In this document: in pieces, positions 11,537 to 63,862 of the stretch | How positions within the stretch are numbered: the stretch's first letter is position 1 | How the letters are laid out: each line of letters begins with the position of its first letter | DNA from: Chrysomallon squamiferum | Lineage: Eukaryota > Animalia > Mollusca | Assembly: GCA_012295275.1 (NCBI GenBank) | Contig: CM022671.1 | Span: forward strand, 32,736,001 to 32,800,000 | DNA: 64,000 bases | Reading direction: 5' to 3' | The notes under the pieces: generated by a model | Told to the model about the DNA's origin: nothing | Database searches by the model: none | What the model saw: only the letters and a program-made list of their open reading frames with translations | Translations under genes and position numbers: made by a program

Positions 11537-13180
11537 TCAAAATCTACGAGACGGATAATGATAGTAAGTTCGATTTACAAAGGCCTGTCCTTTTTTCTTA
11601 TACAACTTCCATATACTTAAATGTGGTTCTTCCCCACGTTTTGGTTTTATTAGTATTATAAATGCGTTGCGTTCTCGTAGATATCCTCTGAAAATATTTT
11701 AATAAGAATAATTTAATTATTATTTTAGACGATGTATTTTCTCTAACTCAATTCATTCTCTCTTTTTCTCTCTCTCTCAGTACATATGTATACATGTATG
11801 TATGTCTGTATGTATGTGTGTGCATGTGTGTAGGTATGTATGTGTGTATGTTGGTATGTATGTTTGTATGTATGTGTCTAGGTATATCTCTGTGTGTGTG
11901 TATGCGTGTATGTATGTATGTGTATGTGTATATGTGTGTATGTATGTATGTATGTGTGTGTATGTTTGTATGTCTGTATGTATGTTTGTATTGATGTGTC
12001 TAGGTATATCTAGGCATAAAACACAAAAACACTCTAAAATCTCCTTGCCAGATTTAAAAGACAGGGAAACAAAACAAAAAAGGAATTACTAATAAAGAGA
12101 AAATAAAATAAATAAAGAAGAAATAAAATTAAGCAAAAACAACAATAATAGCAATAAAACATAGTAAAACAAAAAATGAAAGACATACTTGATAATAATA
12201 ATAATAATAATAATAATAATAATAATAATAATAATAATAATAATAATAATAATAATAATAATAATAATAATAATAATAATAATAATAACAACAACAACAA
12301 CAACAACAACAACAACAACAACAACAACAACAACAACAACTACAGTAACAACAACAACAATAATAATAATAATAACTGAAACTTTACTTCAGTCCTACAA
12401 ATCTCCCATTCTTTTTCAGCCTGATGATGTGATAAGGTCTGAATGCTTGAAACTTTTGCATTGCATCACCGTAAACTCCTAGTTTAACACTAGATGTCGC
12501 GTTAATTCTGAGCAACTTTCCGTTTTTCATTTTTCTGTAAATGACTGAAAAACATTGGGGTTAAAAAGACAGAATGACAGAATGTACAGTTACACACACA
12601 CACACACACACACACACACACACACACACACACACACACACACACACACACACACACACACACACAAATACATATATCCCTATGAATTTATAAATAAAAT
12701 GTATATTTATTTATTTTTTGTTTTTTGTTTTATCATCTTAAAAAACTGGAAGCTGATACTTAAAAAAGAGTGAAAAAGTGAAGAAAAAAAAAGGAATAAT
12801 AATAATGATGATGTTAATAATGATAGCAGTAGTAATAATAATAATAATAATAAAAATAACTGACAACAACAACAACAACAACAATAACAATAATAATAAT
12901 AATAATAATAATAATAATAATAATAATGACAATAATAATAATAATAAAAACACAAATAGTATAACATTTGTTTGCAAAATAATCATTTGCCAAATTTACT
13001 TCTTGGAAATGGTCTCTCTTCATACGCGAATTTCAGACCGCGTTTTTGACTCGTTTGATCTTCAGTAAATGTCACCTCTTCCTGAACGAAGAAATTTTCG
13101 ATATCATCTTTTTCGAGTGGCTCGCAGTTAGCGAAAAGAAAAGCCACGGCAAACACGACAACAAGACACAAAAGTTTCAT
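11537..13180 (-). CDS. Secreted cationic prepro-protein, array copy A (162 aa)
   Basis: Exons 13180-13000, 12544-12388 and 11687-11537, GT-AG, phases 1 and 2. Protein: MKLLCLVVVFAVAFLFANCEPLEKDDIENFFVQEEVTFTEDQTSQKRGLKFAYEERPFPRIIYRKMKNGKLLRINATSSVKLGVYGDAMQKFQAFRPYHIIRLKKNGRFVGLKGYLRERNAFIILIKPKRGEEPHLSIWKLYKKKGQAFVNRTYYHYPSRRF*. AATAAA lies just after the stop. Confidence 0.85.
12191..12376. repeat. (AAT)n/(AAC)n microsatellite in a copy A intron
   Basis: Trinucleotide runs; source of spurious poly-N/L/I ORFs. Confidence 0.95.
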
Positions 13181-13542
13181 GTCAGATATCCTCGTTTCGG
13201 AGACTGTTATAAATAAATAAATAAATATTAAATAAATAACAACCAAATCCCTCCTCACTTAAAAAAATAAAAATAATAAAAGAATAAAAAAATAAAAATA
13301 CCGAGAATAGGCGAAACAGATCCTGAACAAAAAATCCAAAAGCCAAATCCAGAATAAGACCGATATTCAACAAAAATAAAAACATCAGCATCAGCACCAT
13401 CATCGCCACTATCATCCCGTATGCAATCAATCTTGCAGTAAACAAGTTGTTTCTCATTTGATTCGATCAGACATTTGACTCACAGTTGTTATAATGAATA
13501 CAATAAACTTCAATAATTAATTAGTTCTTATTTACGTTTTCG

Positions 13543-13548
13543 TTTATA
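13543..13548 (-). promoter_or_regulatory. Candidate TATA box of copy A
   Basis: TATAAA on the minus strand about 60 nt before a GTGAGT donor (~13477-13482), the same layout as the other copies. Confidence 0.5.
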
Positions 13549-61345: not shown

Positions 61346-63730
61346 TCAAGACTATGGCGTTGTTTGTGTTTAGATATCCTCTGAAAATATTAATGTAGTC
61401 ATATATTTAATTATTGCTTTTGGTAAGTCTCTCTCTCTCTCTCTCTCTCTCTCTCTCTCTCTCTCTCTCTCTCTCTCTCTCTCTCTCTCTCTCTCTCTCT
61501 CTCTCTCTCTCTCTCCTTCGACAGAGGCGCTGAAAGAAAGAGATATAATAAACATGGCAAAACATACTATTTTAATAATTATTAAATAAGTTAGACGCAA
61601 TTTTTACGTTATAAATATTTAATATTTTACTGTCAGCCATTAATGCATCCTCAGTTACTGATATGGCGAAAGATGAATAAATAAAGAAAAAAATAGAGAA
61701 AGTAGATAGGTACAGCCATTTACTTGTTTTTCTTTTATGATAATTTTTGTTTATTTTACGATTATTTTTCTTTTCATTTCTTTTATTTAATAGCTGTTAG
61801 TGCTGGGTTTTGAATTATTTATTTTTAATATAATCATTGCAACAGATATTATAACATCAAATGTAATTTGTACATTATATATACGCGTATATTTAGTATT
61901 TCATTGTCATCCCATTATTGTATTCTGAATTAGTGATGTGAAAAGAGGTGAATAAATAAAGAAAAATATATAAATAGATAGCAAGATAGCAGAGAGACAA
62001 CTCGCTTACGCTATTTTCATAGTTCGCGCGCACTGGTGTTGTCCTCACCAGACCGGAGCTACTCACTCGCCGCATTGTTTACGTGTCGAGTAGCCACTTG
62101 TGTATCGTCAGTTTTCTTTATGTTTTAAATTTTAAAATGTTTATGCCTAATTATTTACGTATTTAGATGCCTTGGTACCAGAAAATCGGAAAATCAAGAA
62201 ATCGGAATGCCTCAGGCCCCAATGAGTCTGGTTAATCGGTCCTGTACCCGTACTACTACGAATAATAGTGAATTTTGAACAATACTGAACTAATTATGAG
62301 TGCTAAGTCTAAATACGTACAGTTAATACAGTTTCAAATAAGCGAATGTTTATTTATTATTAACATTTTCTGATCTCGAGAGATAAACAAGAAATTCGTA
62401 TTATTCTTAATATTTATTTCAAAATTTTGTGTCACGTTTCATGTTTATTATATGTATCCATTCAGAATAACTTGTCATAAAAGTGTGTTCTTCTTCTAAA
62501 AAAATATTATTATTATTATTATTATTATAGTGGTAGTGCCGGCAGTTGCTGTTGTTGATGTCGTTGGTAATGCATCATTATTATTACGAACACATCTTAG
62601 AATATGACGAAAGCAGATTCCCCATTGAATTATCAACATTCTTACGTTACGGTTACAAATGTGGATACTATATTAGATCGCTCATCTCAGCAGATCATGA
62701 TTCAATGCTGGCGAACCCAGAAATGTTCATCCATTCCGAGGAATGTTTGGTTAAACATTTTGTGGGATACTGTTGACGTGATTCATTTTAAGCTGCTAAA
62801 AAAAAAAAAAAAAAAAAAAAAGAAAGACTTATCGTTATCAGTAACAAATGGTTTGCGTTTCACGAGAATAAATTACGGATCCCACACATCGCTATTCAGT
62901 CTTCAAAGACTGAAAAACTGCAAAACATTCTTCAGCATCCTACTCATTTTCCGGATCTTGCCTTATCTGATTACGAACTATTCCGAAGTTTTCACCACGA
63001 TATAAAACAGCATAAGAGATCAAAAGTAAATTCTCTGTATTCTTTTTATTCACCAAATAATTTCATAGCTTGAAAGGGTCGGTGTATGATTAAATAAAAA
63101 TTAATACATTTGACTCACACTGCTTTATTTAAACCTAATTTTGACACGTCAGTTGCCGCATTAAATATTTATAATGTACAAATTGCATTAGACTTATTTA
63201 ATAATTAACTATTAAAAATAAATATTTCAAAACATAACACTACCTCATACTAAAAAAACCAGTAAAATAACTTACTCTATTTCAGGTGTTTTATGGTTTC
63301 GATAAGGAACAATCGTACGGAACTTCAAGCTTATGAATTCCTTTATGGCAGCAGAGCAACGTCTCGATTTATCCACTGTTGTGAACATTTCTGAATGGGA
63401 CGACATATCTCAGTCCACAGAAAAATAAAATAAAATAAAACAAATAAATAAAAATAAGACAAGAATTAATTGGGCTATTTCAAGACACTCACACATTACA
63501 TACATATATATTACATGAATTTGTTCACATATATATATATATATATATATATATACATAAATGCATATACCTTTCCTGTAAGGTTTTGAACGCGTTTTCC
63601 TATCTAAAAGTTCGTTTATCAGTTCATCTTCGTCACCATTCTCTCCAGGATGTCGTTTTTCACCAACTCTGTCATCACTAATTGCACGGGCCAACTTTCG
63701 CTGTCGTCTTAATCAGCGTTCTCAGCGTTA
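61345..63730 (-). pseudogene. Array copy K, decayed
   Basis: The exon-2 remnant (~63730-63571) has no signal peptide and contains a stop and frameshift, ending ..ELLDRKTRSKPYRK G|GT. Exon 3 (~63420-63276) reads ..RRCSAAIKEFISLKFRTIVPYRNHKTPEI GA|GT. Exon 4 starts at 61380 (GYLNTNNAIVLR) and is cut by the junction with copy J. Confidence 0.75.
62005..62252 (+). mobile_element. MITE-like element, same family as 17046-17705
   Basis: Shares gctattttcatagttcgcg..cactcgccgcattgtttacgtgtcgagt..ggaatgcctcaggcccc and ends in TAATCGGTCCTGTACCCGTA. Confidence 0.8.
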
Positions 63731-63784
63731 GAATTTATAATTATTTTCGAATGAACTAAAAGAGTTATAATAATGAAAACATAC

Positions 63785-63862
63785 CTGTTGACGAAGGTTT
63801 TTAAACGCTTTTTCCTCTCTAGAAATTCATTTTTCACTTCGTCCTCGTCACCATCCTCATCG
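63785..63862 (-). pseudogene. Additional exon-2 remnant of the array family
   Basis: DEDGDEDEVKNEFLERKKRLKTFVN followed by a GTATGT donor; homologous to the propeptide end. Confidence 0.7.

Follow-up and report, generated by a model that had tools for sequence, protein, structure and literature searches.

A tandem array of secreted prepro-protein genes with a conserved signal and fast-changing cargos in Chrysomallon squamiferum

The DNA examined here is a 64,000-nucleotide window of the Chrysomallon squamiferum assembly GCA_012295275.1 (contig CM022671.1, positions 32,736,001 to 32,800,000); coordinates are counted from the first letter of the window and strands are given as (+) or (-). Its G+C content is 30% and it is rich in microsatellites. 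The region from about 11.5 to 63.9 kb (11537..63862) is a tandem array of related secreted-protein genes, in which a six-frame scan located ten copies that bear an ATG (A-J), a further copy (K) and fragments. The first-pass annotation of this DNA had counted at least eleven copies; the array itself was confirmed, but only six of the ten ATG-bearing copies are intact (A, B, F, G, H and I), together with a shortened E, and these numbers refer to the one 64-kb window. Self-alignment revealed a repeat unit of 3-5.5 kb from about 21.7 kb to the window end, and shorter matches between 11.7 and 19.4 kb. The ATGs of the signal exons lie on the (-) strand at 13180 (A), 18368 (B), 24080 (C), 28050 (D), 30870 (E), 34997 (F), 40238 (G), 45813 (H) and 56370 (I), and J alone, at 60667, is on the (+) strand. 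The first 23 nucleotides (nt) of the signal exon are identical in all eight copies C-J, with 0 mismatches, where 100 shuffles gave an expectation of 0.00; the signals of A and B are related to this one.

Gene models were built from splice sites that are homologous between copies and from an RNA contig, as naive enumeration of splice sites alone did not select them. Copies A, B, F, G, H and I were spliced to open frames of 162, 164, 115, 158, 165 and 163 amino acids (aa), with GT-AG at 24 of 24 coding-intron ends and coding introns in phase 1, then phase 2. A TATA box and an exon-1 donor were found in eight of the ten ATG-bearing copies (B-I), and AATAAA lies 9-110 nt past the stop in 6/6 intact copies of the four-exon type. 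The four-exon plan proposed earlier was thus correct in its phases and in the TATA and AATAAA signals of these copies, but exon 1 was not found for A or J and copy E has no third intron; the uninterrupted frames claimed for A, B and E-I were recovered for all but E, which is a fused 90-aa frame.

Four sequencing runs were compared with positions 33500-39400: X1, which is DNA-like, and the RNA runs X2, X3 and X4. X1 shares 23% of sampled words and covers 30/30 bins, introns included, and therefore behaves as DNA. In X3, a 418-nt contig (record 17) maps in three pieces, 35007-34763, 34474-34378 and 33971-33906, whose five exon edges coincide with the predicted F-type edges. Its first 31 nt fall in exon 1, since the depth of 1.46 in bin 35470-35666 equals 31 x 9.28/197. 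The contig was compared by difference counts and not by letters: it differs from F by 3 letters in exon 3 and 2 in exon 4, D differs from F by the same counts, and C also differs from F by 2 letters in exon 4. In exon 2 it has 21 gap letters relative to F, a multiple of three. From the difference counts and this gap, the contig probably represents a D- or F-type allele that is in frame. The gene family is real and expressed, as the F-type transcript demonstrates, and spliced RNA over the predicted junctions exists for the F type. An artefactual or chance origin of the array was ruled out by the exon edges of the contig together with the 23-nt identity that is absent from shuffles. The array is a birth-and-death family of real spliced paralogues, and in this respect, as in the prepro layout and the gene model, the earlier description held up.

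Among the intact copies, all on the (-) strand, A (11537..13180) has coding exons at 13180-13000, 12544-12388 and 11687-11537, and no exon 1 was found upstream of it. B (15744..18788) has a TATA box at 18788, an exon-1 donor after 18723 and coding exons at 18368-18161, 17919-17763 and 15873-15744; a MITE-like (miniature inverted-repeat transposable element) sequence with a 97-bp inverted repeat lies within its intron 3 (17085-17650), and a related piece is at 62010-62254. F (33846..35582) has a TATA box at 35582, exon 1 ending at 35508, exon 2 at 35007-34763, exon 3 at 34474-34378, exon 4 from 33971 with its stop at 33956, and AATAAA at 33846. The coding exons of G (38884..40742) are 40238-40028, 39637-39493 and 39029-38909, those of H (44646..46344) are 45813-45585, 45289-45148 and 44797-44671, and those of I (55193..56935) are 56370-56148, 55890-55749 and 55344-55218. 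The shortened E (30306..31429, -) consists of exon 2 at 30870-30642 and a fused exon 3/4 at 30349-30306, which encodes a 23-aa neutral cargo; a genomic deletion joins exons 3 and 4, and the identical joint is present in X1.

None of C, D, J, K and the fragments is intact in this assembly, and some of the breaks in C, D, J and K are single-base indels that could be assembly errors. C (23018..24596, -) has an open exon 2 (24080-23846) and an exon 3 of 107 nt (23547-23441) that is out of frame, so that it stops after 102 aa, 33 nt ahead of the donor; it is truncated or a pseudogene. The shifted exon 3 of C (23547-23474, -) reads as a short basic Arg/Pro-rich tail, and this frame might be translated as a fourth cargo type. 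In D (26970..28580, -) exon 2 (28050-27824) is frameshifted, with a stop at codon 30 in this assembly, and is followed by F-type exons 3 and 4. The inverted copy J (60667..61321, +) has an open exon 2 (60667-60886), an exon 3 from 61230 that stops after 15 codons and no TATA/exon-1 block of the C-I type found upstream; it is likely a pseudogene. An exon-4 fragment of A/B type (61330..61395, -), which probably belongs to K, abuts J exon 3, and the two meet tail to tail at 61230-61400, which marks the breakpoint of an inversion within the array. The stretch 63276..63862 (-) contains K and a second fragment of exon 2, with exon-2 pieces at about 63862-63785 and 63710-63572 that have no signal peptide, and a frameshifted exon 3 that ends at 63276. 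A remnant at 51600..52060 (-) retains intron 3 and the part of exon 3 just before it (donor after 52017), and no exon 2 was found for it.

Exon 2 contributes a signal, about 19 aa long as set by eye, and an acidic pro region of net charge -5 to -16. The basic sites vary: KR alone occurs in A and RETR alone in B, and F, G, H and I combine both with a third site (KR, RK or RRR) close to the end of exon 2, so that KR and/or RETR is present in 6/6 intact copies. The KR of A had been read as standing in place of RETR, but it aligns with the first KR of C-J. The third basic site in G, H and I would put the mature start at the first exon 3 residue, and the Ser after RETR that had been named as the mature start is one of up to three candidates; the predicted mature N-terminus is therefore uncertain, as KR and RETR compete with each other and, in many copies, with a third basic site. 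At its end the second exon-2 fragment (63785-63862, -) carries RKKR, a canonical furin site, in the position of the RETR of other copies. With their acidic spacers and multiple KR/RR sites the copies, F especially, could also be neuropeptide or hormone precursors that are cut into short peptides at dibasic sites. This explanation is most improbable, since the copies have no repeated motif and, in the five cargos tested, no amidation signal, diverge fast and are often broken, and the long cargos align as a single domain.

The long cargos (A, B, G, H and I), encoded by exons 3 and 4, are 88-102 aa in length (about 95), with a net charge of +18 to +25 and an isoelectric point of 10.4-11.5. Within groups, alignment of the cargos exceeded shuffles by z of 24-32; between groups z was 9.6 for A-H, 6.5 for A-G, 4.8 for B-I and 4.1 for A-I, with weak values for B-H (2.7) and B-G (1.9). 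The long cargos share invariant glycines in both exons (the exon-4 alignment was made without copy I) and recurring Gly-centred basic turns. By alignment, these five cargos are one diverged basic domain. F is of another kind: its cargo contains 19% His (9 His), 24% Asp, 22% Arg and 14% Tyr, and gave no significant alignment with any other cargo (z -1.3 to 1.2). The description of the mature proteins as very different and basic was therefore not borne out, as A, B, G, H and I are homologous and F and E are not basic. Three subfamilies can be distinguished: A/B, G/H/I with the J/K remnants, and C-F.

In composition, the cargos of G (net +22, 12% Tyr, 10% His), H (net +21, 15% Tyr) and I (net +18) are rich in Tyr (12-15%) and in Lys+Arg (22-25%), with His reaching 10%. 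This resembles mussel foot proteins 3 and 5; a polyglutamate pro-piece in mussel Mefp-5 found no confirmation in a literature search. The family may instead encode structural, adhesive or metal-binding matrix proteins (of shell, periostracum, radula, foot glue or egg capsule). The acidic pro region would then hold a sticky protein rich in Tyr, Lys, Arg and His in solution up to its secretion, and metal ions would be bound by the His/Asp peptides. The Tyr, Lys+Arg and His content of G/H/I, the His and Asp content of F and the lack of an amphipathic helix in the long cargos are consistent with such a role. Against it, the long cargos have no tandem sequence repeats and only 8-9% Gly, the nearly frozen signal and the many dead copies fit effector families, and a literature search for such basic Tyr-rich secreted proteins of molluscs gave no paper. 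A matrix function is the main alternative, though a rather unlikely one. The fold of the long cargo may, as a guess, be beta-rich; an AlphaFold2 model of exon 3 alone, half of the domain, had a pLDDT (predicted local distance difference test) of 49.

Cysteines are few: the cargos of A, B, F, G, H and I contain 0, 4, 0, 1, 1 and 1, and no conserved multi-Cys framework of the conotoxin, alpha-defensin or MgCRP-I type was found in them; membership of the conotoxins or defensins was rejected on this ground. No C-terminal amidation signal was found in the five cargos tested. These properties bear on whether the genes encode toxins of a venom, salivary or defensive gland, built like conotoxins from a frozen signal and a cargo that varies. 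A conserved signal with a fast-changing cargo would fit, and 27 superfamilies among 44 in cephalopod salivary glands are, in the accessible part of their description, of function unknown (bioRxiv 10.64898/2026.02.02.703354). But five of the six intact cargos have 0-1 Cys (B has 4), amidation signals were absent from the five tested, the conotoxin Pfam match scored 12.4 bits against a cut-off of 25.1, and a cephalopod host is unsupported, which makes toxins an improbable explanation. The sequences of the cephalopod gland superfamilies may bear on the novelty of the family; the SF1-type octotensin motif RRPYIL is not visible in the A, B, F, G, H and I models.

Relatives were sought with single exons and not whole proteins as queries, so that a remote relative of a whole cargo could be missed. 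The exon-2 profile gave no homologue in word-based searches at longer and near lengths and 0 matches among 1.84 billion representatives, and the exon-3 profile gave none at longer lengths. None of 15 exon queries (5 of exon 2 and 10 of cargo exons, each part of a cargo) came near a Pfam cut-off; at E<=1 the five exon-2 queries gave no dermaseptin-type family and the ten cargo-exon queries no hymenoptaecin/attacin-type match. Exon-3 and exon-4 profiles found no homologue in the PDB, with one chance match at E 0.31, and H exon 2 found none in the Atlas (best 0.78). The 23-nt signal start occurred in 0 metagenome contigs. Five peptide motifs of the family occurred in no searchable paper, and topic searches of the literature found no paper on it. 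Six motifs gave 0 matches in the readable supplements of a gastropod hard-part proteome (PMC11871041), whose sheets give accessions and not sequences, and the accessible text of a review of aquatic invertebrate antimicrobials names nothing alike (PMC11767717). The earlier failure to match the array to a named family was thus upheld, and the family is, on sequence comparison, an orphan and lineage-specific; its precursor layout is known, its cargo unrecognised.

That layout was compared with those of known systems, as given in the accessible parts of the papers cited. Frog skin antimicrobial precursors have an acidic spacer and a cationic cargo (PMC13444074). The likeness to dermaseptin-type frog precursors pointed out earlier was confirmed for the signal, the acidic spacer ending in a basic convertase site and the cationic cargo, but the cargo in the array is 88-102 aa long with no amphipathic helix, and one subfamily is neutral and His-rich. 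Membership of the dermaseptin family was rejected, as the helical moment was below that of shuffles in 5/5 cargos and neither Pfam nor the 1.84 billion representatives gave any sequence similarity. The hymenoptaecin cargo is about 93 aa in length. Like the array, hymenoptaecin has a signal, an acidic propeptide and a long linear cargo, which is antibacterial (PMC2853521), but it is Gly-rich, insect-restricted and has a phase-0 intron, whereas the array cargos are Tyr-rich with 8-9% Gly and no Pfam match. The arminins and periculins of Hydra are clustered, taxonomically restricted, charge-bipartite antimicrobials (PMC10945409); they are confined to Hydra, show no homology and differ in cargo size and Cys content.

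Among molluscs, myticalins and modiocalins are linear cationic peptides with a conserved signal, encoded by tandem genes with pseudogenes (PMC5577615, PMC12294457). They differ in their C-terminal acidic part, three exons, 23-42 aa cargo and other signal consensus, and myticalin membership was rejected because the order is reversed in the array and the genes have four exons. MgCRP-I of Mytilus likewise forms a prepro multigene family, whose genes have four exons, the first of them non-coding, intron phases 1 then 2 and a variable cargo (PMC4558851). Its exon 2 encodes about 17 aa of signal and its exon 4 the whole six-Cys cargo, whereas exon 2 of the array encodes signal and pro region and the cargo, with 0-4 Cys, is spread over exons 3-4; membership was rejected, as the phases match at non-homologous positions and the exon contents differ. 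Histatins are short His-rich secreted antimicrobial peptides (PMC5198042), and F resembles them in its His-rich composition. It differs from them in its net charge of -1 and in having no HExxH, and histatin membership was rejected for these reasons. Histatins are found in mammalian saliva, are net cationic and carry ATCUN (amino-terminal copper- and nickel-binding) and HExxH motifs.

Over the 28 pairs of C-J, 0 to 4 of the 57 signal nt differ, and synonymous changes are absent within G/H/I, whose introns differ at about 20-26% of sites; the sameness of the signal could have arisen by selection or by gene conversion. Amino acid identity in the pro region is 55-75% within G/H/I and 22% for A-B, against 40% for the A-B cargo. 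Only the signal is strongly conserved, and the pro region, which had been described as conserved with it, changes about as fast as the cargo. Ratios of nonsynonymous to synonymous substitution (dN/dS) in the cargo were 1.24 for G-H, 1.54 for G-I and 1.07 for H-I, with bootstrap fractions of 0.248, 0.045 and 0.426, and suggest positive selection in the cargo. Reproductive proteins (for gamete recognition, seminal proteins or pheromone peptides) are often basic and fast-evolving, abalone lysin being an example, and the basic cargo and a dN/dS of at least 1 would agree with such a function; an improbable one, as the single-exon queries detected no Pfam or PDB similarity to any such protein.

A dN/dS near 1 could also reflect lost constraint in a decaying array in which most copies are neutral. 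Two of the three G/H/I pairs are indistinguishable from 1, about half of the units are broken, and no contig of G exon 4 is among those listed for the three RNA runs, which is no proof of absence. However, pairwise coding gaps within G/H/I were multiples of 3 in 13/13 cases, against 8/23 in intron 3 (the pairs are not independent), and in a neutral simulation the frame stayed open with P 0.04-0.06 per copy, or about 1e-4 for the three jointly. Because all gaps are in frame and open frames are rare under neutrality, decay of the intact copies is unlikely. With the A-B ratio of 0.59 and the existence of a spliced transcript, a neutral, decaying array is very improbable as an account of the family. 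Frame and composition are kept while the sequence changes fast.

The origin of the short cargo can be followed in the non-coding sequence. The introns of F are homologous to those of G/H/I, and the 3' untranslated region of F aligns with coding exon 4 of G/H/I. On this homology, the C-F cargo is a derivative that arose by C-terminal truncation and exon 3 turnover, and the direction, from long to short, follows from the long cargo in A/B, the outgroup. In a promoter tree, the split between C-F and G-I has support of 100/100; trees of exon 2 and of intron 3 were unresolved, none of their branches being starred.

Other features flank or interrupt the array. An intronless Cys-loop ligand-gated channel, acetylcholine-receptor-like with a short intracellular part, occupies 5754-6884 (+) as a 376-codon frame and is possibly a chemosensory paralogue. 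Vertebrate-type acetylcholine and serotonin receptors make up the best 60 of its 345 PDB matches, and no cephalopod chemotactile receptor is among these 60. In its nearest Atlas cluster most members are Mollusca, and Arthropoda predominate in the next two; the cephalopod origin once thought probable for this DNA is not supported. A PR/SET (PRDM-like) domain is encoded by two exons at 9629-10250 (+) with a short intron containing a GA repeat, and an Ig-domain exon (963-1253, +), which at 33 bits passes the cut-off, and an exon with weak likeness to FN3 (2008-2274, +) are probably the 3' part of a receptor gene. Fragments of a Tc1/mariner-like transposase helix-turn-helix lie at 2872-3111 (+; weak Pfam match), with similar pieces, judged by eye, near 25.8, 32.6-32.9 and 36.7-37.1 kb. 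The element at 36.65-37.0 kb is multi-copy in X1, present in all three RNA runs and located at C-F unit boundaries. A 49-bp minisatellite of about 22 copies in two blocks spans 7228-8324, and a degenerate reverse-transcriptase fragment, LINE-like (long interspersed nuclear element) by eye, spans 53300-53900 (-).

The family is tentatively predicted, by analogy, to encode lineage-specific secreted effectors that are antimicrobial or otherwise control microbes. The signal would direct secretion of the precursor, and the acidic pro region would mask the charge of the cargo during storage, in part only, as the long precursors remain at net +8 to +16. A furin-like convertase would then cut at the predicted KR and next at RETR, and in F, G, H and I a further cut would be possible at the basic site close to the end of exon 2. 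The long cargo, cationic and rich in Tyr, may bind anionic microbial surfaces in a mode other than that of an amphipathic helix, and the F-type His/Asp peptide may act in a pH- or metal-dependent manner. The RNA-matched exon edges, the frozen signal, the kept frames and the cargo dN/dS of 1.07-1.54 speak for effectors of this kind, as, by analogy, do the layout of acidic spacer and cationic cargo that is shared with known antimicrobial precursors, the clustered, charge-bipartite antimicrobials of Hydra and the pseudogene-bearing tandem arrays of myticalins.

Several observations weigh against an antimicrobial role. The cargos of F and E are neutral (F net about 0, -1; E net 0). The helical hydrophobic moment was below that of shuffles in 5/5 long cargos (z -1.4 to -2.3), which are not amphipathic helices, and the strand moment exceeded shuffles only in B (23/500). 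The bootstrap backs positive selection in one of three G/H/I pairs (0.045, uncorrected), the pro region has an equally high dN/dS within G/H/I (1.37-1.73, none significant), A-B is under purifying selection (cargo 0.59, pro region 0.70), and the cargo clearly outpaces introns only in G-I (0.35 vs 0.20, p 9e-6; G-H 0.93, H-I 0.089). The F-type RNA contig is listed in one of three RNA runs (X3; none for X2 and X4), at depth 9. MgCRP-I has a like layout and positive selection, and yet two of its peptides, made synthetically, had neither antimicrobial nor cytotoxic activity in the accessible account (PMC4558851), a warning that layout does not give function.

A more specific proposal, speculative and unlikely as a whole, is that one cassette of frozen signal, acidic pro region and convertase sites delivers an antimicrobial fold of about 95 residues that is new, cationic and probably beta-rich, that truncation and exon 3 turnover gave a chemically opposite, histatin-like metal-binding peptide, and that the set manages resident microbes or symbionts. 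Legumes and weevils, by analogy, control their symbionts with peptides of their own. Only the label of the RNA library that contains the F-type transcript, metatranscriptomic, hints at a microbial context.

As many precursors share this layout and invertebrates often have orphan tandem families, the significance of the array is moderate until its function is known. Few Cys-poor antimicrobial families are described from molluscs (PMC12294457, PMC11767717). The family offers six intact natural variants and one cargo domain with no detected relative, and in it a secreted basic protein has visibly turned into a His/Asp peptide, the old C-terminus surviving as a 3' untranslated region.

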